Of a DNA stretch of 63,784 nt, positions 1,885-17,908 are shown in pieces. The notes beneath the pieces are model-generated. The model searched no databases, was not told the DNA's origin, and saw only the letters and a program-made list of their open reading frames with translations. Source of the stretch: Candidatus Omnitrophota bacterium (GTDB lineage Bacteria; Omnitrophota; Gorgyraeia; Gygaellales; Profunditerraquicolaceae); the NCBI GenBank assembly GCA_903852325.1, contig CAINQO010000045.1, positions 1 to 63,784 of the forward strand, given 5' to 3'. A program made the translations under genes and the position numbers. Positions within the stretch are counted from its first letter, which is position 1; every line of letters starts with the position of its first letter.

Positions 1885-2616
1885 ATGGCTGCGGCTAAAA
1901 AAGATAATTTCACCATTTATGTAAAACAGATCGAAGCAATTTCCAAAGTGGCGAATTTGATCACTTCGGGAATGTACCTGGAGGAGTTGTTGCGCCTGGT
2001 GGTGCAGGTTACCGCGGAGATCATGAATTCGAAAATTTCCTCTTTAATGCTGCTTGACCCGGATAAAAAAGAATTAGTGGTCAAGGCGACCCAATCGATA
2101 TCCGAAGCATATAACGGCAAACCGAATATTCATCTGGGGGAAGGGATCGCCGGGGTAGTCGCGCAGACCAATAAGCCGATCTGCGTTTTGGATGTAAAAG
2201 CCGACACGCGTTATTTAAATCAGGATGTGGCTAAAAAAGAAGGTTTGTGTTCCCTGGCCTGCGTTCCGTTGGCCGTAAAAGGGAGGGTGATCGGAGTTTT
2301 GAACTGCTATACTTCCAAAAAACATAAATTTTCCAAACACGAGCTGGACCTTTTGACGGCTTTGGCCAACCAGGCGGCCCTGGCAATCGAGAACGCGGAG
2401 CTTGACCTGCGCGCCCGTTCCGCGGAAGAGGCCTTGACGACCCGTAAGCTTATCGAGCGGGCAAAAGATATCCTCTCCCTGGACGCCGGCATCCCTTCTT
2501 CGGAGGCTTACCGCTTGATCCAGAAACAAAGCATGGATATGCGTAAATCCATGCGCGAAGTAGCCGAAGCGATTATCCTGGCAAAAGATATCCGAAGCAA
2601 GAAAAATGAAAAATAA
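1885..2616 (+). CDS. GAF-ANTAR protein (RNA-binding transcription antitermination regulator)
   Basis: N-terminal GAF (GEGIAGVVAQTNKP, RVIGVLNCY) and C-terminal ANTAR (RKLIERAKDILSLDAGIPSSEAYRLIQKQSMDMRKSMREVAEAII). The 3' end overlaps the nadE start. Confidence 0.85.
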   Translation: MAAAKKDNFTIYVKQIEAISKVANLITSGMYLEELLRLVVQVTAEIMNSKISSLMLLDPDKKELVVKATQSISEAYNGKPNIHLGEGIAGVVAQTNKPICVLDVKADTRYLNQDVAKKEGLCSLACVPLAVKGRVIGVLNCYTSKKHKFSKHELDLLTALANQAALAIENAELDLRARSAEEALTTRKLIERAKDILSLDAGIPSSEAYRLIQKQSMDMRKSMREVAEAIILAKDIRSKKNEK

Positions 2617-4294
2617 AGTTTTGCTGCGCGTAGCGATAGCGCAGATCAATTCCACAGTCGGCGACCTAGAGGCGAATGCCGCTAAAATCATCAGCTATAC
2701 CCGGCAGGCAAAAGATTCCGGCGCCCAGATAATCTGTTTTCCGGAACTAGCGCTCTGCGGATACCCCCCCGAAGACCTCCTGTTAAAACCAAAATTTATC
2801 CGTGACAATACCGCCGCTTTAAAGGACCTGGTAAAAGGCATTGACCGGGGGATAGTGGCCGTGGTTGGTTTTGCCGACGGCAATATTAAAGAAGCGTACA
2901 ATGCCGCCGCCGTAATTTATAACCGCCAGGTCAAAGGGGTTTACCGGAAAATCTTTCTCCCCAATTACGGGGTTTTTGACGAAAAGCGTTATTTTTGTCC
3001 CGGGGATAAAGCGCTGGTCTTTTCCCTCGGCGATTTTATTTTCGGGGTGAATATCTGCGAGGATATCTGGGAAGCTTCCGGCCCGACCCGCCGGCAAGCC
3101 GCCGCCGGAGCAAAGCTGATCCTGAATATCAATGCCTCGCCGTATTATGCGGGCAAAAGGAAAAAGAGGCAGGAAGTGATCGCGCAGCAAGCCAGGGTTA
3201 ACGGCGTATTTGTGGTTTATACCAACCTGGTGGGCGGACAGGATGAGCTGGTTTTTGACGGCCAAAGCATGGTTGTGGATAATAAAGGTAAGCTTTTGGC
3301 CCGCGCCAGGGCGTTTAGCGAAGATTTATTATTTTATGACCTGGAGCTTCCGGCAAGCCGCGCCAGGGGTTCCAAAAAGGTAATTAAACTTTCTGCCGGT
3401 TTATCCGCGCCCAAAAAAGTTTTAGCGGCCAGCGAACAGCCGCCAGCCCTGGAACAGGAAGCCGAGGTTTACCAGGCGCTGGTTTTGGGGTTGAAGGATT
3501 ACGTGCATAAGAATGGTTTCGGTAAAGTGATCATCGGTTTAAGCGGAGGGGTAGACTCTTCCCTGGTCGCCACCCTGGCCGTTGACGCTTTGGGCAAGGA
3601 AAATGTTACCGGGGTATTTATGCCTTCCCGCTACACCAGCACCCAGTCGCAGGAGGATGCCTCGGGCCTGGCCAGGAATTTAGGGGTCAGATTTATCACT
3701 CTTTCCATCGAACAGATATTCAGATTTTATCTTTTGGTGCTTGAACCGCATTTCGCCGGCCGGGAAAGGGATATTGCCGAGGAGAACCTCCAGGCGCGCA
3801 TCCGGGGAAATATCCTGATGGCTTTTTCCAATAAATTCGGCTGGCTGGTTTTGACCACGGGAAATAAATCCGAAATGAGCATGGGCTATGCCACCCTGTA
3901 TGGAGATATGTGCGGGGGGCTTGCGGTGATCAAAGATGTGCCTAAAACTTTAGTCTACAAGTTAGCCAGGCACAGAAATTCCCTTGGCCTGGTGATCCCC
4001 GAACGCGTATTTTCCAAGGCGCCCACTGCCGAGTTGAAGTTTAATCAAACCGACCAGGATACCTTGCCTCCTTATGAGGTCCTGGACGGTATCTTGAAGG
4101 CATATGTCGAAGAGGATAAGGACATTACTCAGATCATCGCCTCGGGTTTTGACCCGGAGATGGTCCGGAAAACCTCCGGGGTAGTCGATAAAAACGAATA
4201 TAAGCGCCGGCAGGCCCCTCCGGGGATCAAGATCACTCCCAAAGCTTTCGGCCGCGACCGCAGGATGCCGATCACTAACGGCTACCGCGGTTAA
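2606..4294 (+). CDS. nadE: glutamine-dependent NAD+ synthetase
   Basis: 562 aa; N-terminal CN-hydrolase (glutaminase) domain plus NAD synthase domain with SGGVDSS PP-loop. Confidence 0.93.
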   Translation: MKNKVLLRVAIAQINSTVGDLEANAAKIISYTRQAKDSGAQIICFPELALCGYPPEDLLLKPKFIRDNTAALKDLVKGIDRGIVAVVGFADGNIKEAYNAAAVIYNRQVKGVYRKIFLPNYGVFDEKRYFCPGDKALVFSLGDFIFGVNICEDIWEASGPTRRQAAAGAKLILNINASPYYAGKRKKRQEVIAQQARVNGVFVVYTNLVGGQDELVFDGQSMVVDNKGKLLARARAFSEDLLFYDLELPASRARGSKKVIKLSAGLSAPKKVLAASEQPPALEQEAEVYQALVLGLKDYVHKNGFGKVIIGLSGGVDSSLVATLAVDALGKENVTGVFMPSRYTSTQSQEDASGLARNLGVRFITLSIEQIFRFYLLVLEPHFAGRERDIAEENLQARIRGNILMAFSNKFGWLVLTTGNKSEMSMGYATLYGDMCGGLAVIKDVPKTLVYKLARHRNSLGLVIPERVFSKAPTAELKFNQTDQDTLPPYEVLDGILKAYVEEDKDITQIIASGFDPEMVRKTSGVVDKNEYKRRQAPPGIKITPKAFGRDRRMPITNGYRG

Positions 4295-4306
4295 AATATA
4301 ATTTAA

Positions 4307-4336
4307 GTTACCAACTCTAGTTCTTTTTTACTTGTA
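4307..4336 (+). promoter_or_regulatory. bipartite box GTTACCA-N16-ACTTGTA, copy A (promoter-like)
   Basis: GTTACCA 4307-4313 and ACTTGTA 4330-4336 with exactly 16 nt between. The N16 ends in a T-run and the upstream flank is AT-rich (AATTTAA). Same box at 11468, 13597 and 15411. Confidence 0.5.
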
Positions 4337-4348
4337 TTGGTGTAAGGC

Positions 4349-4378
4349 TCGCAGAGAAGCGAAAAAAACATTGGCGTT
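4349..4378 (+). promoter_or_regulatory. leader RNA hexaloop hairpin pair (ANTAR-substrate-like), copy A
   Basis: P1 is TCGC-AGAGAA-GCGA (4349-4362). P2 is AAC-ATTGGC-GTT (4367-4378). The P2 loop and 3' arm (GGCGTT) form the 5' arm of the following terminator. Confidence 0.45.
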
Positions 4379-4407
4379 CCAAGATAAGGAACGCCATTTT
4401 TATTTTT
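4373..4407 (+). terminator. intrinsic terminator / attenuator in the leader of the APC-PII operon
   Basis: GGCGTTCC (4373-4380) pairs with GGAACGCC (4388-4395); 7-nt loop, then ATTTTTATTTTT. Confidence 0.75.
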
Positions 4408-4420: not shown

Positions 4421-4440
4421 AGACGCAGGCGTCTTTTTTT
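4421..4440 (+). terminator. second terminator-like hairpin in the same leader
   Basis: AGACG-CAGG-CGTCT (or AGAC-GCAGGC-GTCT with a hexaloop) followed by a T-run. Confidence 0.55.
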
Positions 4441-4484
4441 GATCCTATGACGGAGAAAAAAAGGCGCTTTTTTATTTTATTAAC

Positions 4485-4519: not shown

Positions 4520-6373
4520 ATGGCTCAAGGGGATATGACTTTGGTTAAGCCTAAGCTCGGTTTATTAGGCGCCACGATGAACGCAATGGCTTTGATTGCT
4601 CCGGGAGCGTTTTTGTGGATTACTTATCAGTTGCAGGCTGCGGCTACCGCGCCAAGCGGGGCTTCGGTTGCCAGCGACATTTGGGCAGGGATCGTGCTGG
4701 CCTTGACCGTATGTTTTTTAACCGCACTCTCCTATGCGCAGTTGGCAAAAATCTATCCGGAAGCAGGTTTTGCCAGCTGTACTTATTTCGCCGAAAAAGC
4801 CTTTTTGGATGCGCGTAAGGAGAAAGTAAGCGGCCCGACCTCGATAGCGCGTTTTGCGAAACTGGCTACCGGATGGGCGGCGCATCTTTTTTATTGGGTT
4901 TATCCGGGAGTAATGGTGGCGATGATGGCCACCCTGATCGGATATATTTATAACCAGTTTACCGGCCAAACCCTGCCGCTATTAAACATGACTGTTATCT
5001 GCGTAATATTTACGGTAGTGACCGGTTATGTCGCCTACCGGGGCGTAACCGGATCAACGGTTATTGCTATCTGGATCAATATTATTCAATGGGTTACTTT
5101 GGTGATCTTTACGGGCTTGGCGATCTGGTACCGCCTGGCTAATCCCCAGCATGCCACGCAGTGGGTATTTAGCGGAGGATTGGATATAATTAAACCGCAC
5201 TCCTTGCAGGGTATCCTGGTCCAGTCGACGATAGCGATTTTAATTCTCGTGGGTTTTGAAAGCTGCACGGCTTTGGCCGCCGAAACCAAAGATCCCAAAA
5301 CCACCATTCCCAAGGCGATCATTATTTCACTTATTGTTCAGGGGGTGTTTGCTTATCTGTTCCAGTATTTTGGTGCCGGATTGATGCTTAGTGAAAAGCT
5401 GGCTAATGCCGCAGGGGCAACCGGCATGGCTGCCGCCGCCGCTTCGGGGGCTCCCATCGGTGACTTGGCTAAACTTATCGGGGAATCTTTAATTCCCGGC
5501 CTGGGATTCGGTTTAATGATTACTATGGCCATTACCGTGGCGATCGCGGTGATCGGAACAACCTTAAGCTGTATGAATACGGCGATGCGGGTATCTGCCG
5601 GCATGGCGGAAGACCGGGAGCTGCCTTCCGCATTAAGCTTTATTCATCTAAAACATATTACGCCGCATGTTTCACTGGCAATGTTGATCCTGGTTACTTC
5701 GGTAATCGGAGCTATCGGCGTGCGTTCAGTAGTAGGGCTTTTTGGCATTACCCTTGCCTCAAACCTGGGGACTTTTATACTCTACGGGCTTACCTGCATC
5801 TGGACGATCGTTGCTTTTAAAAATAGGGAGGATTTTAATCTTTTAAAGCACGGGATTATCCCCGTGCTGGGGCTGATCGCCAATGTGGTGATGACCGCTG
5901 GGATCCTTTATTTATATATTATCGGCAATGCCGATGCCAAGGCGGAAGCCACGATCTGTTTTACTATCGCCGGAGGCTGGGCCTTGATCAGCGTTATCTA
6001 TGTTGCGGTAACTACCGTGCGTAAAACTTACCGCTTAAAGATGGTTTCCGGGATGATCCGTCCGGAGCAGCTCAACATAGTCGTGCAGGCGCTGAAAGAA
6101 GATGATTGTATTTTAGGGATGACGGTGACAAAAGTTAAAGGATTCGGCCGGCAAAAAGGTCACCTTGACGGTGAGCCGCAGAACGATATAATCAGTTTTA
6201 TACCGAAAATAAGGCTGGATGTCGTAGTTAAGGAGTGGGATGTCCCGCAGATAATGGATATTATCGCCGAAGCGGCGCGCACCGGCAATGTCGGTGACGG
6301 CAAGATCTTCGTGACCGATGCCTCGGAAGCGATGCGCATCCGCACCGGAGAAAAAGGGATTTGGGCGGTATAA
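4520..6373 (+). CDS. APC-superfamily permease with in-frame C-terminal PII (GlnB-like) domain
   Basis: 617 aa. About 500 aa form a multi-TM APC-type permease. The last ~105 aa carry the PII hallmarks GFGRQKG (T-loop base) and TGNVGDGKIFV (B-loop). AAGGAGGG RBS upstream. Confidence 0.85.
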   Translation: MAQGDMTLVKPKLGLLGATMNAMALIAPGAFLWITYQLQAAATAPSGASVASDIWAGIVLALTVCFLTALSYAQLAKIYPEAGFASCTYFAEKAFLDARKEKVSGPTSIARFAKLATGWAAHLFYWVYPGVMVAMMATLIGYIYNQFTGQTLPLLNMTVICVIFTVVTGYVAYRGVTGSTVIAIWINIIQWVTLVIFTGLAIWYRLANPQHATQWVFSGGLDIIKPHSLQGILVQSTIAILILVGFESCTALAAETKDPKTTIPKAIIISLIVQGVFAYLFQYFGAGLMLSEKLANAAGATGMAAAAASGAPIGDLAKLIGESLIPGLGFGLMITMAITVAIAVIGTTLSCMNTAMRVSAGMAEDRELPSALSFIHLKHITPHVSLAMLILVTSVIGAIGVRSVVGLFGITLASNLGTFILYGLTCIWTIVAFKNREDFNLLKHGIIPVLGLIANVVMTAGILYLYIIGNADAKAEATICFTIAGGWALISVIYVAVTTVRKTYRLKMVSGMIRPEQLNIVVQALKEDDCILGMTVTKVKGFGRQKGHLDGEPQNDIISFIPKIRLDVVVKEWDVPQIMDIIAEAARTGNVGDGKIFVTDASEAMRIRTGEKGIWAV

Positions 6374-6386
6374 ACAGGCAGGTGAA

Positions 6387-6710
6387 ATGATGAAAAAGAT
6401 AGAATGCATTATCCGTTCGGAAAAACTGAAAAACCTGACCGATTCGCTCCTGGGGGTAGGGATCGGGGGGATGACCGTGAGTGAAGTGCGCGGTTTCGGG
6501 ATGCAGAGTACGCGGCCGGAGAGTTTCCTGTTTGTGCATAAAACTAAAATCGAGATTTATGCCCTTGATGATCAGGTAAACGAAATCCTGGCGGTAATTT
6601 TAAAAGAATGTTTTTCCGGAAAAGCCGGTGACGGCAAAATTGCCGTGATCCCGCTGGATAACTGTATCCGTATCCGCACCAAAGAGAAGATGGACAAAGC
6701 CATTATTTAA
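6387..6710 (+). CDS. divergent PII-like signal transduction protein (short T-loop)
   Basis: MMKKIECIIRSEKL... with GFGMQST in place of GFGRQKG; B-loop SGKAGDGKIAV retained. The track ORF start at 6318 overlaps the upstream gene, so ATG 6387/6390 is preferred. Confidence 0.75.
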   Translation: MMKKIECIIRSEKLKNLTDSLLGVGIGGMTVSEVRGFGMQSTRPESFLFVHKTKIEIYALDDQVNEILAVILKECFSGKAGDGKIAVIPLDNCIRIRTKEKMDKAII

Positions 6711-6727
6711 ACGGAAGGAGAAAAACG

Positions 6728-8032
6728 ATGGAAAAGTTTTATAGAAGGTCTAAAGATATCGTAAGCAGCGGTATGGTAATAATGCTTTTGGGGCTGTGTT
6801 TTCTCGGGACAAATATTGCTTCTGTTTGGGCAGATGATCCTAGTGCGGCGGCGGCTGTTCCCGCGCCCGCGCCTACCTCTTCTCTCGGGCTGTTAATGAG
6901 CATGTTGGATAAGGCAGGGTTGGCTAAGCCTTTAAGCAATGCCGGGATCAACCTTTACGGTTACGTCCAGGCGGGTTTCTTCCATGACTTCACCCGTCCT
7001 CAAAAAGGGGGAGCAACATTTATGGGGTACAACAGCTTTAAAAATAGTGGCGTTCTTGACAAAGTGAGTTTGAACATTGAACGTACCGTTGATCCCACGA
7101 AAAAACAATTTGATTTGGGTTTCCGCCTGGAAGGGATTTATGGCTCGGATGCCGCTTTTGTCCACTCCAACGGGATGTGGGCTAAACAGACGGGTCATAC
7201 TCAAAGCGATCTTATCCAGGCCTATGTGGATATCGCCATTCCTAACCTGCCGGCAAAGATCCGGGTAGGTAAATGGATCGAGTTAGCCGGTTTTGAGCAG
7301 TTCGATGCCAACATTTACGGCGCTTTCGGCGATCCGTCCAGGGCATTGTATTCCTATAGCTACCAGTTTCTCTTTGCCGAACCGGTTACGCAGTCCGGTG
7401 CTTTTGCTACCTATGTATTTAGCCCGCAATTGACGATTGACGCGGGGATGACCCGCGGATGGAACCAGTCGACGCGGGATTCTAACGGCACCTCAGACTT
7501 CCTGGGCCGCCTGATCTTTACCCCCAATGACAAGACCACGGTTATTTTTGTAATGACGGAGGGGCCGGAATACCCGATTCTCGTAGGAAACAATGTCCCC
7601 GCCGGTGACAATAAAGATTGGTGGACCGCTTTGGACCTGGTTGTTACGCAGAAAATTAACGATAAGTTAAGGTTTGGCTTGGGCATGGATTACGTGCGGG
7701 CCCAGAAGATTCCCGGTTTAGAAGAAGGGGCTAAACAATGGGGCGGCGTGGCGGGTTATGCCAGCTACGCGTTTAATCCGTATTTAACGCTAAATAGCAG
7801 GTTGGAATGGTATCAGGATGCTGCCGGCGGTTTCTCAACCGGTGCGGCAACCGGAGCCAATTATTATGCTTCTACGGTAGGGGTGGCGATTAAACCGTTC
7901 CCGAATAATAAGTTTTTATCTAACTTGCTGTTCCGTCCTGAAGTGCGCTACGACTATTCTAATAAACCGGTTTTTAACAGCAACGAGCACAACCAGTGGA
8001 CATTCAGTATGGATACCATTTTTACCTTTTAG
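6728..8032 (+). CDS. outer-membrane beta-barrel porin (family uncertain)
   Basis: 434 aa; signal peptide (LLGLCFLGTNIASVWA), alternating beta-strand pattern, C-terminal ...TIFTF aromatic terminus. Confidence 0.7.
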   Translation: MEKFYRRSKDIVSSGMVIMLLGLCFLGTNIASVWADDPSAAAAVPAPAPTSSLGLLMSMLDKAGLAKPLSNAGINLYGYVQAGFFHDFTRPQKGGATFMGYNSFKNSGVLDKVSLNIERTVDPTKKQFDLGFRLEGIYGSDAAFVHSNGMWAKQTGHTQSDLIQAYVDIAIPNLPAKIRVGKWIELAGFEQFDANIYGAFGDPSRALYSYSYQFLFAEPVTQSGAFATYVFSPQLTIDAGMTRGWNQSTRDSNGTSDFLGRLIFTPNDKTTVIFVMTEGPEYPILVGNNVPAGDNKDWWTALDLVVTQKINDKLRFGLGMDYVRAQKIPGLEEGAKQWGGVAGYASYAFNPYLTLNSRLEWYQDAAGGFSTGAATGANYYASTVGVAIKPFPNNKFLSNLLFRPEVRYDYSNKPVFNSNEHNQWTFSMDTIFTF

Positions 8033-8090
8033 CATGAGCTAACCGATCGGCCGTAATTTAATAAGTACATATTTTAAGAGGGAGGATGCT

Positions 8091-8429
8091 ATGAAAAAGA
8101 TCGAAGCGATAATTCGTCCCGCAAAAGTGGGGGATGTTTGCGCGGCTTTAGCGAAAATTTGTAGTCCGGGGATTATGATCACCGAAATCGAAGGCCACGG
8201 AAGGCAATGCGGAATAAAGCAGGAGTTCCGCGGAAAAACCTACAAAACGGAACTGCTTAGTAAGGCTAAGCTGGAAATTATTGTAAATGATGGAGATCTG
8301 GATAAAACCGTTAAAGCGATCCGCGAAGCCGCCTTTACGGGAAAGGTGGGGGATGGCAAGATTTTTATTTATCCGGTAGACAATGCCATAAGGATCAGCA
8401 CAGATGAAAAAGGGGAGGCGGCAGTGTAG
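8091..8429 (+). CDS. PII family nitrogen regulatory protein (third paralog of the cluster)
   Basis: 112 aa; GHGRQCG T-loop base, TGKVGDGKIFIYP B-loop; GGGAGG RBS. Confidence 0.85.
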   Translation: MKKIEAIIRPAKVGDVCAALAKICSPGIMITEIEGHGRQCGIKQEFRGKTYKTELLSKAKLEIIVNDGDLDKTVKAIREAAFTGKVGDGKIFIYPVDNAIRISTDEKGEAAV

Positions 8430-8462
8430 CGCCGGGGCTGCCCGGCAGAAGAGCTTTTGAGC

Positions 8463-8490
8463 TTGACAGGGGTATTTTTTGTGCTATATT
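8463..8490 (+). promoter_or_regulatory. sigma70-type promoter of a long structured leader
   Basis: TTGACA (8463-8468), 16-nt spacer, TGc-TATATT (8485-8490, extended -10). Confidence 0.6.
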
Positions 8491-8496
8491 TTCTTG

Positions 8497-8689
8497 ATTA
8501 AGCTCAATCCCTTTTCGGGCGGTATTGACACCTGAGAAGAGCGAAAAGCCAGGTTTTCGATTTTTAATAGTCTCGGGGTGGATATCCGGAAATTTAGATT
8601 AGGTGTTATTCAACCTGAGCCCAACAACCGACCTCTTGAGAGCACGGTTCAAGAGGGGATCACCAGAGGACGTACACTCTGGTTTTTTA
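8497..8689 (+). promoter_or_regulatory. ~190-nt structured leader ending in a terminator; candidate riboswitch (possibly ydaO-type c-di-AMP class)
   Basis: Several hairpins plus a terminator sit directly upstream of a KimA-like transporter. GGGGTGGATATCC (8575-8587) and GAGCCCAACAACCGAC (8617-8632) loosely resemble conserved ydaO segments as I recall them. Confidence 0.35.
8662..8689 (+). terminator. intrinsic terminator closing the leader
   Basis: ACCAGAG-8 nt loop-CTCTGGT followed by TTTTTTAT. Confidence 0.75.
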
Positions 8690-10928: not shown

Positions 10929-10943
10929 AAGGGGACTATAAAC

Positions 10944-11468
10944 ATGAGTTTTGAAGAGTTACACCAAAAATTATCGCCGACCATTAAAAGGATCGCCTAC
11001 CGGCTAAACGGGCATTACCGGTCTTTTAGCCATGAAGACCTTTACCAGGAGGCAACTATCCATCTTTGGAGTAATTTCTGTAAAGGTGTCCTTAGCGATA
11101 AGACCGACAGTTATATCCTCCAGGGTTGTTATTTCCACCTGAAAAACTATATCCGCAAGGTAAATGAGCGCTCCAATGTGATCAGTATTGACGCGACATT
11201 AAGCGCGCATGAAGATTCTACCGTTGAGGATGTCCTGGGCCAGTATTGGGCTTGTGATGATTGCCGGAGCCAACTGCACGATAAATTTTTAGTGCAAAGC
11301 ATCAGGAATAACGGTTTTGATCCGAAAGAAAAAAGGCTGCTGGATTATTTCAGCCAGGGGTTAACCACCAGGGATATCGGCAAGCGTATGGGGATATCCC
11401 ATGTCAGCGTAGTGAAGCTGATGCAAAAGGTCAGGGTCAAGGCCCGCAAGCATCTGGATAAAATTTAG
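10944..11468 (+). CDS. sigma-70 family (ECF-like, regions 2 and 4 only) RNA polymerase sigma factor
   Basis: 174 aa; region 2 (EDLYQEATIHLWSNF) and region 4 HTH (LTTRDIGKRMGISHVSVVKLMQKVRVKARKHL); no adjacent anti-sigma gene. Confidence 0.8.
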   Translation: MSFEELHQKLSPTIKRIAYRLNGHYRSFSHEDLYQEATIHLWSNFCKGVLSDKTDSYILQGCYFHLKNYIRKVNERSNVISIDATLSAHEDSTVEDVLGQYWACDDCRSQLHDKFLVQSIRNNGFDPKEKRLLDYFSQGLTTRDIGKRMGISHVSVVKLMQKVRVKARKHLDKI

Positions 11469-11497
11469 TTACCAGATCCGGGTATTTTTTACTTGTA
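11468..11497 (+). promoter_or_regulatory. bipartite box GTTACCA-N16-ACTTGTA, copy B
   Basis: GTTACCA 11468-11474 (its G is the last base of the sigma gene stop codon) and ACTTGTA 11491-11497. Confidence 0.5.
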
Positions 11498-11534
11498 CTC
11501 TTGTAATAATCTAAGTCCCCTTTAAAAAGGGCAG

Positions 11535-11568
11535 ACACAGTGATGTGTAAGATGTAAACATAGGCGTT
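11535..11568 (+). promoter_or_regulatory. leader RNA hexaloop hairpin pair, copy B
   Basis: P1 is ACAC-AGTGAT-GTGT (11535-11548) and P2 is AAC-ATAGGC-GTT (11557-11568). P2 overlaps the terminator 5' arm. Confidence 0.45.
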
Positions 11569-11595
11569 CTAGAGATAGAGCGCCTTTTTATTTTT
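11562..11595 (+). terminator. intrinsic terminator / attenuator, leader B
   Basis: AGGCGTTCT pairs with AGAGCGCCT (one G-U pair), hexaloop AGAGAT, then TTTTATTTTT. Confidence 0.8.
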
Positions 11596-11630
11596 CCCGG
11601 ACCCAGCGGGTTTTATGAAGGCGGTATCTG

Positions 11631-11807
11631 ATGATTGACGGAAAACTGATCGATAAATTGAGCCAATTAAAGGAAGCCAGGGGATATACTTTATATGATT
11701 TATCCAGAAAGCTGGATATTCAGGTCACGACCATTGAGCGCTGGTTTAAGACCAAACGCATCAATAAGGTTTACGCGCAGCTGGTTAGGGATAAGTTAAG
11801 TATTTAA
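11631..11807 (+). CDS. small XRE-like HTH protein (58 aa), below the ORF-track length cutoff
   Basis: Hand translation gives MIDGKLIDKLSQLKEARGYTLYDLSRKLDIQVTTIERWFKTKRINKVYAQLVRDKLSI. The YTLYDLSRKLDIQVTTIERW stretch looks like a helix-turn-helix. The RBS is weak. Confidence 0.45.
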   Translation: MIDGKLIDKLSQLKEARGYTLYDLSRKLDIQVTTIERWFKTKRINKVYAQLVRDKLSI

Positions 11808-11842
11808 AGCGATTAACGGGGAAAGGTCTTTTTGTTTAATTT

Positions 11843-11853
11843 TTACACAATTG
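11843..11853 (+). promoter_or_regulatory. TTACACAATTG half-site upstream of amtB copy 1
   Basis: Identical to the left arm of the 13735-13762 palindrome; the right arm is degenerate here. Confidence 0.3.
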
Positions 11854-11897
11854 GATAACCAAGAGTCAAGTTAAGTACTCATTTAAAGGAGGGAGAA

Positions 11898-13124
11898 ATG
11901 AATTCAGGGGATACAGCTTGGGTGTTAATCTCATCGGCACTGGTATTGCTGATGACTCCGGGTTTGGCCTTTTTTTACGGCGGGATGGTCAGGCGGAAAA
12001 ATGTGTTGAGTGTTTTGATGCAGTGCTTCATTATTATGTGCGTTTTGAGCATCCAGTGGGTTCTGATCGGATACAGCTTATCTTTTCACCCGGGAAACGG
12101 ATTCTGGGGAGGATTGAAATGGATGGGATTGAACGGGGTAGGCTTAGAGCCTTACGCGGATTATGCCGGAACGATCCCGCACCAGGCATTCATGGCCTTT
12201 CAGATGATGTTCGCCATTATCACTCCGGCGTTGATCATCGGGGCGTTTGCCGAAAGAATGAAATTTTCCGCATTTTTAATTTTTACCCTGCTCTGGGCGA
12301 CTTTTGTTTATGATCCTTTGTGCCACTGGGTTTGGGGAATGGGCGGCTGGTTAAGGAACCTGGGGGCTTTGGATTTTGCCGGGGGCACGGTCGTGCATAT
12401 TAACGCCGGGATCGCCGCTTTGGTTACGGCGATAGTTTTAGGAAAACGCGCTAACCTGGATAAGAACATCCCTACTCCGCACAATATGCCTTTTGTGGTG
12501 TTAGGGACCGGTTTATTGTGGTTTGGCTGGTTCGGTTTTAATGCCGGAAGCGCTTTGGCCGCTAACGGATTGGCGGTAAATGCTTTTGTGGTAACCAATA
12601 CCGCCGCGGCCGCCGCCGGTTTAAGCTGGGCGTTGATCGAGTGGATGCGTAACGGCAAACCGACGATCTTCGGGGTTTGTTCCGGGGCGGTAGCCGGCCT
12701 GGTGGCGATCACTCCTGCCGCCGGATACGTGAATGTAGTTTCGGCGCTCATTATCGGTTTTTTAGTCAGCATGATCTGTTTTATCGCGGTTACCGTAATC
12801 AAGCCTTTATTCGGTTATGATGATTCCCTGGATGCTTTCGGCGTGCACTGTGTCGGAGGGATGTGGGGGGCTTTGGCTACCGGGCTGTTTGCTTCCAAGC
12901 TGGTCAACCCGGCAGGAAGCGACGGTTTATTTTTCGGCAATCCTAAACAGTTCCTGGTCCAGCTGGCCGCGGTTTTAGTTACCGTAGCTTATACCAGCGT
13001 AGTCACTTTTATAATTTATAAGCTGGTAGACGTTTTTGTCGGAGTAAGGGTGGATGAAAAAACAGAAGCGATGGGCTTGGATCTTACTCAGCATCGCGAG
13101 AGAGCATATACCGTACTAGAGTAA
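11898..13124 (+). CDS. amtB: ammonium transporter (Amt family), copy 1
   Basis: 408 aa; Amt signatures (FFYGGMVRRKN, DFAGGTVVHINAG, LDAFGVHCVGG); GGAGGGAG RBS. Confidence 0.95.
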   Translation: MNSGDTAWVLISSALVLLMTPGLAFFYGGMVRRKNVLSVLMQCFIIMCVLSIQWVLIGYSLSFHPGNGFWGGLKWMGLNGVGLEPYADYAGTIPHQAFMAFQMMFAIITPALIIGAFAERMKFSAFLIFTLLWATFVYDPLCHWVWGMGGWLRNLGALDFAGGTVVHINAGIAALVTAIVLGKRANLDKNIPTPHNMPFVVLGTGLLWFGWFGFNAGSALAANGLAVNAFVVTNTAAAAAGLSWALIEWMRNGKPTIFGVCSGAVAGLVAITPAAGYVNVVSALIIGFLVSMICFIAVTVIKPLFGYDDSLDAFGVHCVGGMWGALATGLFASKLVNPAGSDGLFFGNPKQFLVQLAAVLVTVAYTSVVTFIIYKLVDVFVGVRVDEKTEAMGLDLTQHRERAYTVLE

Positions 13125-13178
13125 AAGGCAGGCAGCAGTTAGCCGCGAGTAGGTAGGAAAATTTAAGTGGAGGATAAG

Positions 13179-13520
13179 ATGAAATTAGTAATCGCGATTA
13201 TTCAGCCTTATAAGCTTGAAGAAGTTAAAGAAGAGCTGTATAAAGTGGATGTCAATTTGATCACGGTCAGCGAAGTCCTGGGGCATGGCCGGCAAAAAGG
13301 GGTGACGGAGGTATACCGAGGTTCTAAAGAAACCGGCAACCTTCTGCGTAAGGTGCGCCTGGAGATCGCGGTGAACGATAATTTCCTGGAGCCGACGATC
13401 AAGGCGATCGTTAAGGGGGCTAAAACCGGGGAAACCGGGGACGGAAAGATCTTTGTCCTGGATTTAAAAGAGTGCATCCGCATCCGGACGGAGGAGCAGG
13501 GAAGCCAGGCGATCGGATAG
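13179..13520 (+). CDS. glnK: PII nitrogen regulatory protein GlnK, copy 1
   Basis: 113 aa; GHGRQKG T-loop base, [12 protein letters not shown]-loop; follows amtB. GGAGG at 13169-13173 favours ATG 13179. Confidence 0.93.
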
Positions 13521-13596
13521 ATAAAAGATCCTTCGTCTGTAGATAAAAGATTATTGTGGACTCAGGATAAATTTTGCTTCGCAAAATTTAATTTAA

Positions 13597-13626
13597 GTTA
13601 CCAGAGTCGGTGTTTTTTTACTTGTA
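13597..13626 (+). promoter_or_regulatory. bipartite box GTTACCA-N16-ACTTGTA, copy C
   Basis: GTTACCA 13597-13603, ACTTGTA 13620-13626; the AATTTAA upstream flank matches copy A. Confidence 0.5.
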
Positions 13627-13665
13627 TGATTAATGTAAGCACGGGGTAGTGTTTTACATTAATCA
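13627..13665 (+). promoter_or_regulatory. 12-bp perfect hairpin in leader C
   Basis: TGATTAATGTAA (13627-13638) pairs with TTACATTAATCA (13654-13665), 15-nt loop. Confidence 0.6.
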
Positions 13666-13679
13666 AAGCGCAATGACGG

Positions 13680-13721
13680 CGCCGATATGGTTATTTAAAG
13701 TAACCGTAAAGGCGTTTTTTT
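13680..13721 (+). terminator. intrinsic terminator / attenuator, leader C
   Basis: CGCCGATATGGTTA pairs with TAACCGTAAAGGCG (imperfect), then T7. It is preceded by GCGC-AATGACG-GCGC (13668-13682), which competes for its 5' arm. Confidence 0.65.
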
Positions 13722-13734
13722 ATTTATCCTAATT

Positions 13735-13762
13735 TTACACAATTGAATAGTCAATTGTGTAA
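13735..13762 (+). promoter_or_regulatory. perfect 11-bp inverted repeat (candidate operator or hairpin) upstream of amtB copy 2
   Basis: TTACACAATTG-aatagt-CAATTGTGTAA, ending 19 nt before ATG 13781. Confidence 0.5.
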
Positions 13763-13780
13763 CGCACAAAGGGGAGGAAG

Positions 13781-15007
13781 ATGATTAATCAGGCGGATAC
13801 GTTATTTGTTTTGCTGTCGGCGGCGTTTGTGATGTTAATGACCCCGGGACTTGCTTTTTTCTACGGCGGCATGGTGCGGCGCAAAAATATCTTAAGCGTT
13901 TTAATGCAGTGTTTTGTGGCTTTATGTTTATTGTCTTTGCAGTGGATCCTTTTCGGCTACAGCCTTTCTTTTGCCCCCGGCAGCGGATTCTGGGGCGGCT
14001 TGAGCTGGTTTGGTTTAAACGGCGTGGGGACAGCTCCTTACGCGGGTTATTCTGCGACTATCCCGCATGAGGCGTTTATGGTTTTTCAGATGATGTTTGC
14101 CGTAATTACCCCGGCTTTAATTATCGGAGCGTTTGCCGAAAGAATGAAATTCTCGGCTTTTTTGGTTTTCACTCTGCTCTGGGCGACTTTTGTTTATGAT
14201 CCTTTGTGCCACTGGGTCTGGGGTGAAGGCGGCTGGTTAAGGAATCTGGGAGTGATGGATTTTGCCGGGGGGATCGTGGTGCACACCAGCGCCGGGGTCG
14301 CCGCTTTAGTGACGACCATTGTCATCGGCAAAAGAAAAAACTTGGAACATACCCCTTCCCCGCATAACCTGCCCTTCGTCGTTTTAGGCACCGCGCTTTT
14401 ATGGTTTGGCTGGTACGGGTTTAATGCCGGAAGCGCTCTGGCGGTTAATGGGATCGCCGTGAATGCTTTTGTGGTTACGAACACCGCCGCGGCCGCCGCC
14501 GGGTTAAGCTGGGCTTTATTGGAATGGATCCGTAACGGTAAACCGACAGTCTTCGGGATAGTTACCGGTTCGATTGCCGGTTTGGCTACGGTAACCCCGG
14601 CATCAGGGTTTGTCAGCCCGATTTCGGCGATCATTATCGGGATTGCCGCAAGCATCGTCTGTTTTATCGCGGTGGCGGTGACCAAACCGCGGTTCGGTTA
14701 TGATGATTCCCTGGACGCTTTCGGAGTGCACGGGGTCGGGGGCATATTGGGTACGCTCTTAACCGGGGTATTGGCTTCTAAGGTGATTAATCCGGCCGGA
14801 GCTAACGGATTATTCTATGGTAATCCTAAGCAGCTGTTGATACAATTGATCGGAGTGGCGGTTGCCGCCGGCTATACTTTCCTGGCCACCTTTGCTATTT
14901 ATAAGCTGGTGGATATTTTCTTTAGAATGCGCGTCAGCGAGAAGGATGAGCTGGTAGGGCTTGACCTCACCCAACACAGGGAAAGAGCGTATACTATCTT
15001 AGAGTAA
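13781..15007 (+). CDS. amtB: ammonium transporter (Amt family), copy 2
   Basis: 408 aa; colinear with copy 1; GGGGAGG RBS. Confidence 0.95.
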   Translation: MINQADTLFVLLSAAFVMLMTPGLAFFYGGMVRRKNILSVLMQCFVALCLLSLQWILFGYSLSFAPGSGFWGGLSWFGLNGVGTAPYAGYSATIPHEAFMVFQMMFAVITPALIIGAFAERMKFSAFLVFTLLWATFVYDPLCHWVWGEGGWLRNLGVMDFAGGIVVHTSAGVAALVTTIVIGKRKNLEHTPSPHNLPFVVLGTALLWFGWYGFNAGSALAVNGIAVNAFVVTNTAAAAAGLSWALLEWIRNGKPTVFGIVTGSIAGLATVTPASGFVSPISAIIIGIAASIVCFIAVAVTKPRFGYDDSLDAFGVHGVGGILGTLLTGVLASKVINPAGANGLFYGNPKQLLIQLIGVAVAAGYTFLATFAIYKLVDIFFRMRVSEKDELVGLDLTQHRERAYTILE

Positions 15008-15062
15008 GAGTAGTTAGTGGGTAGCAGAGAGCGTGTAGGAAAATCTAAAAGCGGAGGACAAG

Positions 15063-15404
15063 ATGAAGCTGGTTATCGCGATCATTCAGCCGTATAAATT
15101 AGAAGAAGTTAAAGAAGAATTGTATAAAGCGGAGATCAACCTGCTGACGGTCAGCGAAGTCCTGGGACATGGCCGGCAAAAAGGGGTAACGGAAGTTTAC
15201 CGCGGGGCCAGGGAAACCGGAAACCTGCTGCGCAAGATCCGTCTGGAGATCGCGGTGAACGATAATTTCCTGGAACCGACGATCAAAGCGATCGTTAAGG
15301 GGGCTAAAACGGGTGAGACCGGGGACGGAAAGATCTTTGTCCTGGATTTAAAAGAGTGCATCCGCATCCGGACGGAGGAGCGCGGAAGCCCGGCGATCGG
15401 CTAA
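15063..15404 (+). CDS. glnK: PII nitrogen regulatory protein GlnK, copy 2
   Basis: 113 aa; near-identical to copy 1, with Ala49 where copy 1 has Ser49. Confidence 0.93.
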
Positions 15405-15410
15405 AATCAG

Positions 15411-15440
15411 GTTACCAGAACCCCCGTTTCTTTACTTGTA
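15411..15440 (+). promoter_or_regulatory. bipartite box GTTACCA-N16-ACTTGTA, copy D
   Basis: GTTACCA 15411-15417, ACTTGTA 15434-15440. Confidence 0.5.
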
Positions 15441-15448
15441 ATTAAGAG

Positions 15449-15464
15449 AGAACTGAGGCGTTCT
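15449..15464 (+). promoter_or_regulatory. hexaloop hairpin competing with terminator, leader D
   Basis: AGAAC-TGAGGC-GTTCT; the loop and 3' arm form the 5' arm of terminator D. Confidence 0.4.
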
Positions 15465-15491
15465 GGATTTTAAAGAATGCCTCTTTTAATT
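15455..15491 (+). terminator. intrinsic terminator / attenuator upstream of glnA
   Basis: GAGGCGTTCT pairs with AGAATGCCTC (one G-U pair), 9-nt loop, then TTTTAATT (short T-run). Confidence 0.6.
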
Positions 15492-15549
15492 ATCGGGGTT
15501 TATGGTAAGATAGGTAATCATTTTTTAAGACCATATCACGGAGGAGAAA

Positions 15550-17745
15550 ATGAGCATAAGACAGGAAGTTTTATTCAAAATTAAAAGCACGGAATTAGAA
15601 AAGATCGATGCGCCGAAAAAAACCTCTTCTTATTTCGGAGTAAATACTTTCAGCACGGAAACGATGCAGAAGCATATCTCCAAAAGCACCTTTGAAGCAT
15701 TTAAAACCTGGATGTCCGAAGGCAAAACCATTACTTTAGCGCAGGCAAACGAAATCGCCGACGCGATGAAGGAATGGGCGATGGCTAAAGGCGCAACCTA
15801 TTATACGCACTGGTTCCAGCCGATGACCGGGCTTACCGCGGAAAAACACGATAGCTTTATTTCGATCGTTTCTCCGGGAAAAGTGATCGAGAAATTCTCC
15901 GGGAATAAATTGATCCAGGGTGAGCCGGATGCTTCCAGTTTTCCTTCCGGAGGGATCCGTTCCACCTTCGAAGCCAGGGGTTACACTGCCTGGGACCCTT
16001 CCAGCCCCGCATTCATCATTGAAAGCAAGCTCGGCAAAACTTTATGTATCCCCACGATATTTATTTCTTATCACGGCGAAGCGCTGGATAAAAAACTGCC
16101 GCTTTTACGCTCCGATGAAGCTTTGAATAACGCCGCCTTAGGCCTGGTCAAGCTTTTCGGCCACAAAGGGGTAAAGAAAGTATTTTCCACCTGCGGCCCG
16201 GAGCAGGAATATTTCTTGATCGATAAAAATTATTATAATTTACGCCAGGATCTGATCTTGACCGGCCGCACCCTGGTCGGCGCTCCCAGCCCTAAAGGCC
16301 AGCAGTTAGAGGACCAGTATTTCGGCACGATCAAGGAGCGGGTAGTAAATTTCATGTTTGAGGTCGCTGAGGAAGCCTATAAGTTAGGGATCCCCTTGAT
16401 GACCCGGCACAATGAAGTTGCCCCGCACCAATACGAATTTGCTCCGGTATTTGAGGAGTCAAACATCGCCGCCGACCACAACCAGCTGCTGATGGAAATA
16501 ATGAAAAAGGTAGCTTTAAGGCACGGGATGGTTTGCCTATTGCATGAGAAACCTTTTGCCGGGATAAACGGCAGCGGAAAACACCTGAACTGGTCCCTGG
16601 CAGATAATTTAGGAAACAACCTGTTGAATCCCGGTCAGACCCCGGAAGATAATCTGCAGTTTTTAGCGGTATTGGCCGCGGTTTTAAGGGCGGTTTATCT
16701 GCACGCAGATTTATTGCGCGCTTCCGTTGCCCTTGCCGGGAACGAACACCGCTTAGGAGCCAATGAAGCTCCTCCGGCGATCATCAGCGTGTTCTTGGGG
16801 GAACAATTGACCTCGATTTTAAACATGATCGAGAAGGGGGTAAAGTCCAAGGTTTCCAAAAGCGATATTATCGATTTAGGGGTTAACCGTTTGCCTAAGT
16901 TCAATAAGGATACCACCGACCGCAACCGTACCTCTCCTTTCGCTTTTACGGGAGCCAAGTTCGAATTTCGCGCGGTCGGTTCATCGCAGAACATTTCCAC
17001 TCCTATCGCGGTGATCAATACGATCATTGCCGAAAGCCTGGATTATGTCGCCGAACAGATCAAGAAAGCCGTTGCCAGCGGAAAAGACTTTAACGCCGGG
17101 GTGCTGCAGGTAATCTCCAAGATCGTTAAAGAAACCAAGGATATCCGTTTTGAAGGGAATAACTATTCCGAGGAATGGCTCAAGGAAGCCACCAAGCGTG
17201 GTTTACCGAATATCGCTTCGACCTATGCGTCCCTGGAGGCTTTAACCAAAAAAGAGAATATCGCCCTTTTTGAGAAATATAAAGTTTTTTCTAAAGAGGA
17301 GCTGGTCGCCCGTTACCATATCTGGATCCATATGTATGACCTTACCCTGGAGATCGAGGCCAATACTTTGATTGAAATGGTCAATGCTTCGATCGTGCCG
17401 GCAGGTTATAAATATGAACAATTATTGGCAGGCAACCTGGATGCTTTGGTAAAATTGCAGAAAGATGCCAGCTTAACTTTGGACAGCGCGGCGTTGAAAG
17501 ACAAGAAGGAGCATTTGGCCGAAATAGTCACCAAGATCTATTACGTGCGCAGAAATGCCTCGGAAATGGTAAAACTGCTGGAAAAGGCAGGGAAAATGGG
17601 AAGCGAAGAAAAGGCCGAGCTTTATTTCAATGAGCTTAAGCCTTTAATGGAACACATCAGGAAGCACGTGGACCAGCTGGAATGCGTAGTTTCCGACGAT
17701 GCCTGGGACCTTCCCAAGTACCGCGAGATGTTGTTTATAAAATAA
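15550..17745 (+). CDS. glnA: glutamine synthetase, type III
   Basis: 731 aa, the length and organisation typical of GSIII (GlnN); catalytic-domain motifs (NGSGKHLNWS, HEKPFAGINGSG); GGAGGAG RBS. Confidence 0.92.
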   Translation: MSIRQEVLFKIKSTELEKIDAPKKTSSYFGVNTFSTETMQKHISKSTFEAFKTWMSEGKTITLAQANEIADAMKEWAMAKGATYYTHWFQPMTGLTAEKHDSFISIVSPGKVIEKFSGNKLIQGEPDASSFPSGGIRSTFEARGYTAWDPSSPAFIIESKLGKTLCIPTIFISYHGEALDKKLPLLRSDEALNNAALGLVKLFGHKGVKKVFSTCGPEQEYFLIDKNYYNLRQDLILTGRTLVGAPSPKGQQLEDQYFGTIKERVVNFMFEVAEEAYKLGIPLMTRHNEVAPHQYEFAPVFEESNIAADHNQLLMEIMKKVALRHGMVCLLHEKPFAGINGSGKHLNWSLADNLGNNLLNPGQTPEDNLQFLAVLAAVLRAVYLHADLLRASVALAGNEHRLGANEAPPAIISVFLGEQLTSILNMIEKGVKSKVSKSDIIDLGVNRLPKFNKDTTDRNRTSPFAFTGAKFEFRAVGSSQNISTPIAVINTIIAESLDYVAEQIKKAVASGKDFNAGVLQVISKIVKETKDIRFEGNNYSEEWLKEATKRGLPNIASTYASLEALTKKENIALFEKYKVFSKEELVARYHIWIHMYDLTLEIEANTLIEMVNASIVPAGYKYEQLLAGNLDALVKLQKDASLTLDSAALKDKKEHLAEIVTKIYYVRRNASEMVKLLEKAGKMGSEEKAELYFNELKPLMEHIRKHVDQLECVVSDDAWDLPKYREMLFIK

Positions 17746-17753
17746 TGTAAAAT

Positions 17754-17805
17754 GGGGCCAGATTTATTTTTCAATAGCTAACTGCTGGAAAATAAATCTG
17801 ACCCC
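17754..17805 (+). terminator. long hairpin after glnA (weak terminator)
   Basis: 17-nt arms GGGGCCAGATTTATTTT and AAAATAAATCTGACCCC (one mismatch); no strong T-run follows. Confidence 0.4.
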
Positions 17806-17819
17806 ATTTAAAAGTTAAG

Positions 17820-17865
17820 AGCACAACGTAGTGCTTTAAAGATAAAAGTTGAACAGGGGCGTTCA
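17820..17865 (+). promoter_or_regulatory. dual hexaloop hairpins (ANTAR-substrate-like) upstream of the fis-like gene and gltBD
   Basis: P1 is AGCAC-AACGTA-GTGCT (17820-17835) and P2 is TGAAC-AGGGGC-GTTCA (17850-17865). Both loops have A1 and G4. P2 overlaps the terminator 5' arm. Confidence 0.55.
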
Positions 17866-17908
17866 CTTTGGCAAATATATTTTTTGCCATTGTGAGCGTC
17901 ATTTTTTT
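17858..17908 (+). terminator. intrinsic terminator / attenuator upstream of the fis-like gene and gltBD
   Basis: GGCGTTCACTTTGGC (17858-17872) pairs with GCCATTGTGAGCGTC (17886-17900): 13 of 15 positions pair, with a 2x2 internal loop. ATTTTTTTAA follows. Confidence 0.7.

Follow-up and report, generated by a model that had tools for sequence, protein, structure and literature searches.

A 63,784-nt contig of an uncultured Candidatus Omnitrophota bacterium (CAINQO010000045.1, assembly GCA_903852325.1; this whole stretch is hereafter the window) carries a nitrogen-assimilation gene cluster whose transcription units appear to be governed by antitermination. At least one attenuator, in which an intrinsic terminator competes with a short hairpin bearing a six-nucleotide loop (hexaloop), precedes six of the seven transcription units of this cluster, the exception being the second APC permease. 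Judged from their sequences, these leaders are very probably ANTAR-responsive attenuators, and the GAF-ANTAR protein encoded next to them is probably their regulator. The account as a whole, a GAF-ANTAR antitermination regulon for nitrogen assimilation with an additional layer formed by an extracytoplasmic function (ECF) sigma factor, is assigned a probability of about 0.72.

Every gene of the nitrogen cluster (positions 195-24337) lies on the + strand. The cluster opens with lrp/asnC, a class I/II aminotransferase gene, the GAF-ANTAR gene (243 aa) and the gene for a glutamine-dependent NAD synthetase (nadE), and continues with an APC permease-PII fusion, PII, a BBP2 porin, another PII, and the second APC permease. 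A sigma factor (174 aa), a helix-turn-helix (HTH) protein (58 aa), and two amtB-glnK pairs follow, and the cluster closes with type III glutamine synthetase (GSIII), a Fis-type HTH protein (126 aa), gltB, and gltD. The genes carA and carB are found from 59073 onwards. Gene identities were assigned by Pfam and agree with a preliminary description of the window, which had placed the GAF-ANTAR gene between the aminotransferase gene and nadE. The comparison set consists of 80 related Omnitrophota loci (1.05 Mb; 1.1 Mb together with the window), individually cited by L numbers.

Leader RNAs with mutually exclusive folds

An ANTAR target has been defined as a pair of hairpins, each with a stem of 3 bp or more and a hexaloop carrying A at position 1 (A1) and G at position 4 (G4), separated by a variable linker, the second hairpin overlapping a terminator (Ramesh 2012; PMC3369931). 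Here, P2 denotes the hairpin that competes with the terminator and P1 the hairpin upstream of it. The window holds nine attenuators (Table 1): four canonical dual-hairpin modules, one dual module with a 7-nt P2 loop, and four single-hairpin modules. Two attenuators stand in tandem in the sigma factor leader and likewise in the APC-PII leader. In all nine, P2 shares 4-10 nt with the 5' arm of the terminator, and the hairpin and terminator folds are therefore mutually exclusive. Leader folding assigns -12.6 to -24 kcal/mol to the terminators and 0 to -4.6 kcal/mol to the competing hairpins alone; as the stability of P2 by itself falls far short of that of the terminator, the leaders terminate by default.

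The preliminary description had proposed this exclusive overlap of a competing hairpin with a strong terminator and had suggested folding each leader as a check; the shared nucleotides and the energies bear it out, and all 11 hairpin strings that it listed are present where it had located them. The leaders it named are real, but it missed the tandem second attenuator of the APC-PII leader (1b, 4421-4470) and a promoter box described below, and it left the amtB2 hairpins unlisted. Its observation that another hexaloop often lies upstream applies to leaders 1a, 2a, 3, and 6, which carry the full dual-hexaloop arrangement; leader 4 approaches it, leaders 1b, 2b, 5, and carA do not have it, and about half of all modules contain a single hairpin.

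The core motif ACNNNGGCGT occurs 14 times in the window compared with 4.8 +/- 2.4 times after shuffling, and none of 100 shuffles reaches 14. Seven of the 14 copies lie in + strand leaders, including one at 4423. Terminators were called with strict single-hairpin criteria, which replaced a permissive finder that had flagged long imperfect structures within coding regions. Across the window and the 80 loci, a competing hexaloop hairpin accompanies 137 of 228 strict terminators on the + strand, with G4 in 123 of the 137, and 7 of 59 on the - strand. A local shuffle, in which the 14 nt upstream of each + strand terminator were permuted, predicts a hairpin at about 54 terminators and G4 at about 22. 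G4 is no by-product of G-rich terminator stems: of 51 loops whose position 4 falls outside the terminator helix, 43 retain G there. In upstream P1 hairpins, G4 is found in 33 of 62, compared with a background of 25%.

Of the published loop consensus cited in the preliminary description, G4 is present in 11 of the 11 listed window loops; A1 is loosely conserved, being present in 9 of the 11 and across the relatives in 50% of P2 and 68% of P1 loops, mostly with G in its place. In the EutV-RNA structure, the specific contact is that of G4 with Tyr164, the protein does not touch A1, and one hexaloop makes up the minimal site (PMC8934654); the invariant G4, the loose A1, and the many single-hairpin modules seen here agree with that structure.

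A covariance model (R1) was built from an alignment of 39 dual modules, all of them from relatives and none from the window. In this alignment 90% of cells are paired compared with 30-44% for slid partners, a percentage inflated at the inner three pairs by the module-picking descriptor, which demanded 3 bp; double-sided changes number 67 compared with 27 +/- 8 in shuffles. When the window was scanned on both strands with filters off, + strand leaders took the top seven places: those of sigma, amtB1, gltB, APC-PII and GSIII, then leader 1b and that of amtB2. Expectation (E) values were 5e-7 for the sigma leader (10786), 6.7e-6 for amtB1 (11534), 6.2e-5 for gltB (17820), and 0.054 for APC-PII (4348-4380); the match for leader 1b lies at 4383, only P1 is found in leader 4 (amtB2; E 0.88), and the carA leader scores E 1.1. 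In the 80 loci, R1 gives 71 matches at E <= 1, every one on the regulator's strand and none on the opposite strand, and about 30 of them are absent from the training set. Run on a further, independent collection of 80 carA loci from metagenomes, the model recovers four leaders directly 5' of carA (L121, L116, L102, and L097; E 0.001-0.3). A search of relatives with a covariance model and a demonstration of stem covariation had both been put forward as tests in the preliminary description, and both came out in favor of the proposed hairpins, strongly for P1 and, for P2, mainly through comparison between leader classes.

Conservation is also evident within single leader classes. Applied without any hint of the structure to 13 orthologous Fis-gltB leaders, RNAalifold finds both P1 and the terminator, and 7 of 19 pairs show compensatory changes; P1 is 97% paired and its G4 is invariant (13/13). 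The P2 core GAAC/GTTC of these leaders is conserved in sequence, and its pairing is consequently neither supported nor contradicted within orthologues. The sigma leader has a layout common to about 22 loci, consisting of a sigma-70 promoter, P1 TAC[AGCGTT]GTA, and two terminator modules, namely P2 AAGAC[NNNGNN]GTCTT with terminator 1 and then GGAC[NNNGNN]GTCC with terminator 2, in which loop position 4 is invariant and the remaining loop positions vary. Leader 3 has orthologous leaders, termed class B, in relatives. The genes behind attenuators in relatives are overwhelmingly concerned with nitrogen: the sigma factor, small porins followed by amtB, glnK, GSIII, GS-I, glutamate dehydrogenase, Fis-gltBD, and carA. 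An Rfam scan returned no family at gathering thresholds and no curated ANTAR-target family; matches at E up to 10 were at chance level only (Phe leader, miRNAs).

The GAF-ANTAR protein and a probable promoter layer

The regulator consists of a GAF domain (residues 32-169) and an ANTAR domain (residues 180-231; PF03861, 61.9 bits against a gathering cut-off of 27.3). Its phmmer matches in the PDB are Rv1626 (1s8n), EutV (6wsh), and NasR (4akk), together with PtsP- and NifA-like GAF domains. EutV contacts its RNA through Tyr164, which stacks on G4, the Met172 plug, Arg142, Lys143, and Lys149 (PMC8934654). These residues align to Y209, M217, R187, K188, and K194 of the regulator, none of which varies across 16 orthologues; EutV Arg168 aligns to Q213, and that contact residue is not kept. 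An AlphaFold monomer model, reliable for the C-terminal part only, shows a three-helix ANTAR there: a helix at 151-200 runs unbroken into the domain and is followed by helices at 205-219 and 223-242, with a predicted local distance difference test (pLDDT) score of about 88-92. Owing to a shallow alignment, the overall pLDDT is 63 and residues 1-85 stay below 50, and the GAF half of the model is unreliable. The best NCBIfam matches of the GAF domain are the N-terminal GAFs of NifA (E 1.7e-15) and EI-Ntr/PtsP (E 1.2e-14). The GAF domains of PtsP and NifA bind 2-oxoglutarate. The PtsP GAF binds glutamine (PMC4848567).

No ANTAR gene other than that for GAF-ANTAR occurs in the window. Among the matches listed, which comprise the 120 closest proteins, its orthologues are 77-92% identical and all derive from metagenome-assembled genomes (MAGs) of Omnitrophota or MAGs labelled Planctomycetales. 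The order lrp-aminotransferase-GAF-ANTAR is kept in nearly all of the 80 loci, and the genes that follow are usually the sigma factor, a porin, amtB-glnK, GSIII, and Fis-gltB. An attenuator lies within 400 nt downstream of the GAF-ANTAR stop codon in 25 of 70 loci, often starting less than 100 nt away. GSIII directly follows GAF-ANTAR in 11 loci, and in L029, L036, L040-L042, L047-L049, and L055 it starts 13-90 nt past the stop codon without an attenuator; a GS-I glnA is located between the aminotransferase gene and GAF-ANTAR in L028, L039, L043, L062, L067, and L068. Glutamine synthetase genes that abut GAF-ANTAR in this way imply that the two are transcribed together. A second GAF-ANTAR paralogue (56-58% identity) is present in two loci, L053 and L076. 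Domain identity, contact residues, RNA conservation, and synteny together lend support to the proposal, made in the preliminary description, that the GAF-ANTAR protein would relieve termination at the nitrogen leaders.

Four window leaders open with identical copies of a box, RGTTACCA-N13-TTTACTTGTA (Table 1). The loci hold 53 copies on the + strand and 1 on the - strand; an attenuator of a nitrogen operon invariably follows, at a distance of a few to about 40 nt, and the box is present in 24 of the 25 loci that hold the sigma gene. The window gltB leader is without a box; the orthologous gltB leaders have one. The box matches neither the sigma-70 nor the sigma-54 consensus, and its fixed N13 spacing around a non-conserved, T-rich spacer gives it the look of a promoter. 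In the GSIII leader, R1 pairs GTTAC...GTAAT into a P1 around a 22-nt loop; this reading was rejected, as the pairing is not kept in other boxes. The match of the sigma factor to TIGR02937 spans its full length and covers regions 2 and 4 only; its Sigma70_r2 match is weak. The sigma gene has its own sigma-70 promoter and two attenuators before its start. The GTTACC...TACTTGTA box could quite plausibly be the cognate promoter of this ECF sigma factor.

Feature coordinates and neighbouring elements

Table 1. Coordinates of the regulator operon, leaders, and gated genes in the window (P1, upstream hairpin; P2, competing hairpin; loops in square brackets)
Feature	Position	Strand	Attenuator module	Elements	Basis
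Regulator operon	195..4294	+			Pfam, promoter scan
Sigma-70-like promoter of regulator operon	110-138	+			promoter scan
lrp/asnC	195-704	+			Pfam
Aminotransferase	734-1882	+			Pfam
GAF-ANTAR	1885-2616	+			Pfam
Glutamine-dependent nadE	2606-4294	+			Pfam
Leader 1a (APC-PII)	4307..4406	+	dual, 4349-4396	box 4307-4336; P1 4349-4362 TCGC[AGAGAA]GCGA; P2 4367-4378 AAC[ATTGGC]GTT; terminator 4372-4396 + T-tail	
Leader 1b (tandem second attenuator)	4421..4480	+	single, 4421-4470	AGAC[GCAGGC]GTCT 4421-4434; terminator 4426-4470, -19.2 kcal/mol	
Gated genes, APC-PII fusion through gltD	4520..24337	+			Pfam
Sigma leader	10752..10928	+		sigma-70 promoter TTGACA-N16-TAATCT 10752-10779	
Sigma leader, module 1 (2a)		+	dual, 10788-10847	P1 10788-10799 TAC[AGCGTT]GTA; P2 10803-10818 AAGAC[AGTGAA]GTCTT; terminator 1 10810-10847	
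Sigma leader, module 2 (2b)		+	single, 10873-10918	GGAC[TAAGGC]GTCC 10873-10886; terminator 2 10883-10918	
ECF-type sigma factor, 174 aa	10944..11468	+			TIGR02937, 46.4 bits vs cut-off 42.9
Leader 3 (small HTH, amtB1, glnK1)	11468..11595	+	dual, 11535-11585	box 11468-11497, overlapping sigma stop codon; P1 11535-11548 ACAC[AGTGAT]GTGT; P2 11557-11568 AAC[ATAGGC]GTT; terminator 11562-11585	
Leader 4 (amtB2-glnK2)	13597..13725	+	dual, 7-nt P2 loop, 13638-13715	box 13597-13626; long P1 13629-13663, core AGCAC[GGGGTA]GTGTT 13638-13653; P2 GCGC[AATGACG]GCGC 13668-13682; terminator 13679-13715	
Leader 5 (GSIII)	15411..15492	+	single, 15449-15483	box 15411-15440; AGAAC[TGAGGC]GTTCT 15449-15464; terminator 15455-15483	
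Leader 6 (Fis-like ORF 17939-18319, then gltBD 18301-24337)	17818..17910	+	dual, 17818-17900	P1 17818-17837, core AGCAC[AACGTA]GTGCT; P2 17850-17865 TGAAC[AGGGGC]GTTCA; terminator 17858-17900 (-24 kcal/mol)	
carA leader	58945..59028	+	single, 58978-59019	sigma-70 promoter TTGACT-N16-TATAGT 58945-58972; AAAC[AAAGGC]GTTT 58978-58991; terminator 58985-59019	

The APC-PII fusion of the 4520-8429 cluster is a 617-aa permease with its PII domain at the C-terminus. Besides it, Pfam identifies three further PII genes in the transporter cluster and the two glnK, and the window contains six PII domains inside 11 kb. The 4520-8429 cluster is absent from all 80 related loci and is thus a lineage-specific insertion that acquired a box and two attenuators. 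The leader of the second APC permease (8463-8700) shows no ANTAR-like hairpin and no Rfam match. It comprises a sigma-70 promoter (8463-8490), a structured leader of ~200 nt with a minimum free energy of -62.7 kcal/mol (z = -2.8), and a terminator at 8662-8683, and it may be a different riboregulator. In the sigma leader, TTCGCC[AAAATT]GGCGAA at 10851-10868 was considered as a P1 for the hairpin at 10873 and was rejected; its loop is without G4, it folds as a tetraloop, and it occurs in few loci.

A 58-aa Cro/C1-like HTH open reading frame (ORF; 11631-11807) lies between the attenuator and amtB1 and is kept in 11 loci. Both amtB genes have a conserved palindrome, TACACAATTG-N6-CAATTGTGTA, between the terminator and the ribosome-binding site (RBS), at 13736-13761 and about 11840-11865; it also occurs in L003, L010, L016, L054, and L060, and may serve as an operator, conceivably one bound by the 58-aa HTH protein, or form a stem in the 5' untranslated region (UTR). 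Directly 3' of the GSIII attenuator (15484-15511) lies AAGAATGCCTCTTTTATTTT with an extended -10 promoter of the TGTGGTAAAAT type, located at 15501-15511, past the terminator. This arrangement is also found in L020, L024, and L078, and is kept even in relatives without the terminator 5' arm, which suggests a second, attenuator-independent GSIII promoter. The 5' UTRs of GSIII and amtB in relatives carry GC-rich palindromic inserts of ~45 nt (CACCCCGCGC...GCGCGGGTG), sometimes duplicated, just 5' of the RBS (L004 at about 14250-14350, L030, L054, L057, and L065), which resemble repetitive extragenic palindromic or miniature inverted-repeat transposable elements. The 126-aa Fis-type ORF (17939-18319; HTH_8, similar to the C-terminus of NtrC) overlaps the start of gltB by 19 nt and is kept ahead of gltB in many loci.

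Long imperfect inverted repeats are located at 17748-17811, after GSIII, and at 58775-58912, after an HD-domain gene. In the latter, some 75 nt separate arms of 24-27 nt and a T-run comes next; both are probably bidirectional or operon-end terminators. At 25521-25620, an Mrp/Nuo-like antiporter cluster has a consensus sigma-70 promoter followed by a leader terminator (25592-25614) against which no hexaloop hairpin competes; in L044 (10725-10830) and L064, a homologous antiporter gene lies behind an ANTAR-type attenuator right after GAF-ANTAR. At 55459, the hairpin CGC[AGAGAC]GCG, which has A1 and G4, adjoins a terminator (55465-55497) at an operon end after a second gltD-like gene. It has no conserved P1 and was set aside as probably fortuitous; for the 640-aa ORF that lies downstream, Pfam gives no match.

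Proposed mechanism, competing explanations, and known systems

In the proposed mechanism, the leader RNA can fold in two exclusive ways, either as an intrinsic terminator or as a weak P2 of 3-5 bp with a G4 hexaloop, whose loop and 3' arm make up the terminator 5' arm; roughly one module in two also has a G4 hexaloop hairpin, P1, 2-20 nt upstream of P2. A dimeric GAF-ANTAR would bind the hexaloop hairpins on nascent RNA, with G4 stacking on Y209 as it does on Tyr164 of EutV. The bound P2 would stay closed, the terminator would be blocked, and RNA polymerase would read through. The GAF domain would tune RNA binding in response to a metabolite that reports nitrogen status, with 2-oxoglutarate and/or glutamine the likeliest, although by analogy with related GAF domains either can be named as the signal only tentatively. 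The predicted cascade would lead from a sigma-70 promoter to the ANTAR-gated ECF sigma, on to the box promoters, and again to an ANTAR gate at each operon, forming a feed-forward, AND-type circuit. Whether one cytoplasmic GAF-ANTAR, sensing 2-oxoglutarate or glutamine and gating elongation at every nitrogen operon, and one dedicated ECF sigma with GTTACC-N16-TACTTG-type promoters provide global nitrogen control in Omnitrophota, without NtrC/sigma-54, GlnR, NtcA, or TnrA, is more doubtful, and such a generalization is offered as a conjecture.

Several findings weigh against this interpretation. A1 is poorly conserved, and about half of the modules in relatives are without P1, although EutV in vivo needs both hairpins (PMC3369931). 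Among orthologous leaders the core stem of P2 hardly varies, and its covariation is found mainly between leader classes; the pairing percentage carries the descriptor bias mentioned above. In the GSIII leader and the class B and C leaders, loop positions 4-6 lie within the terminator stem, and G4 there is accordingly not independent evidence. The link between sigma factor and box is a co-occurrence within one gene cluster, and the GAF half of the AlphaFold model gives no structural pointer to a ligand. Finally, the analysis covers only 64 kb of an uncultured genome, and another ANTAR protein, such as a GnfR-like REC-ANTAR, could be the regulator.

That last point belongs to an alternative in which the leaders are of the ANTAR type, their regulator is encoded elsewhere, and the GAF-ANTAR protein has different targets. 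A precedent exists in Geobacter, where a REC-ANTAR acts on glnK and amtB leaders through a site that resembles P2 of amtB2, and the paralogue in L053 and L076 shows that a second GAF-ANTAR can be present. This alternative is nevertheless considered unlikely, because the GAF-ANTAR, the sole ANTAR gene within the window, is 77-92% conserved and syntenic with attenuators and glnA/GSIII in about 80 species, and the first attenuator often begins less than 100 nt past its stop codon. At the other extreme, the hairpins might be chance neighbours of ordinary terminators, since stems of 3-5 bp arise at random about 0.2 times per 25 nt and 55459-55497 is one probable instance. The enrichment, the strand bias, and the covariance model and conservation results contradict such an origin and effectively refute it.

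Control might instead be exerted essentially on initiation, by the ECF sigma acting through the GTTACC box at promoters, with the terminators as constitutive insulators or partial attenuators between tandem operons of like orientation and the hairpins without a regulatory role. The box is highly conserved and specific, every terminator also sits 3' of a preceding operon, the terminator 5' arm is lost in L005, L020, and L024, and GSIII has a second, extended -10 promoter past its terminator. Several results make this explanation improbable. The hexaloop size and G4 are kept while other loop bases vary, even outside the terminator, and P1, which overlaps no terminator, is conserved with compensatory changes and an invariant G4. 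The sigma and carA leaders carry the motif despite their sigma-70 promoters. Moreover, the terminators lie 3' of the units' own promoters and must be overcome for any expression.

The RNA element, the antitermination mechanism, and the association with nitrogen metabolism are already known. Most predicted ANTAR targets precede nitrogen genes, including those for PII, amtB, and glutamine, glutamate, and arginine synthesis, and Desulfotomaculum acetoxidans has 13 predicted sites in 6 units (PMC3369931). In Geobacter sulfurreducens, the REC-ANTAR protein GnfR relieves termination in the nifH, glnK, and amtB leaders (PMC2995071). The remark in the preliminary description that such a broad regulon would be unusual was therefore overstated. 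What appears to be new is that a one-component GAF-ANTAR, its sensor resembling those of NifA and PtsP, is assigned a broad regulon conserved across the phylum, together with an attenuator-gated ECF sigma factor, a conserved promoter box, and plentiful single-hexaloop attenuators.

GAF-ANTAR is among the commonest ANTAR architectures, yet neither a regulon nor a signal has so far been assigned to one. Of the one-component ANTAR proteins, NasR and PAL alone had been characterised as of 2020 (PMC7496416), and no GAF-ANTAR had been characterised (PMC3369931; PMC7496416); our literature search found nothing on GAF-ANTAR function or on nitrogen regulation in Omnitrophota. The regulon proposed here would be the first assigned to a GAF-ANTAR, and the locus makes it testable, with nine attenuators, dozens of orthologous leaders, and a regulator 77-92% conserved phylum-wide; the small size of both protein and leaders allows direct tests in vitro or in a heterologous host without culturing. 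The single-hexaloop attenuators, which would represent the first natural single-hexaloop ANTAR antitermination if the interpretation is correct, bear on the question raised by the EutV-RNA structure of why two hairpins are needed. The locus also offers a first view of nitrogen sensing in an uncultured, poorly understood phylum, including a candidate ECF sigma-promoter pair.

The EutV/EutW system of the eut operon in Enterococcus faecalis (PMC3369931, PMC8934654) shares the hexaloops, G4, the overlap of P2 with the terminator, the contact residues, and the presence of several attenuators per regulon. It differs in having a phosphorylated receiver rather than a fused GAF sensor and ethanolamine rather than nitrogen-assimilation targets; here, moreover, A1 is loose and about half of the sites are single-hairpin. 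The Geobacter GnfK/GnfR system (PMC2995071) likewise places an ANTAR protein at glnK/amtB leader terminators in a cascade with a specialised sigma factor, which is RpoN in that organism, and the GnfR binding site CAGGCAANGGCGCC resembles the amtB2 P2 GCGCAATGACGGCGCC. GnfR is a two-component response regulator working with sigma-54 promoters and the activator GnfM, whereas the Omnitrophota regulator is a one-component GAF-ANTAR, the promoters are of the sigma-70 or novel-box type, and the sigma gene itself is attenuator-gated.

The nitrogen regulons predicted in 2012 (PMC3369931) resemble the present one in being multi-operon, in including PII, ammonium transporters, and glutamine/glutamate synthases, and in having tandem sites. 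They belong to Firmicutes and Deltaproteobacteria and have no GAF-type regulator assigned, in contrast to the Omnitrophota cluster with its syntenic GAF-ANTAR, ECF sigma, and box. NasR of Klebsiella oxytoca (PMC7496416), a NIT-ANTAR protein, is also a one-component sensor-ANTAR acting at the terminator of a nitrogen leader with an A1/G4 hexaloop, but its NIT domain responds to nitrate/nitrite and controls one operon, whereas a GAF sensor would control a broad regulon here. The GAF domains of NifA and PtsP are closest to that of the regulator and both report nitrogen status, with outputs other than an ANTAR domain: NifA is an AAA+ activator and PtsP a phosphotransferase.

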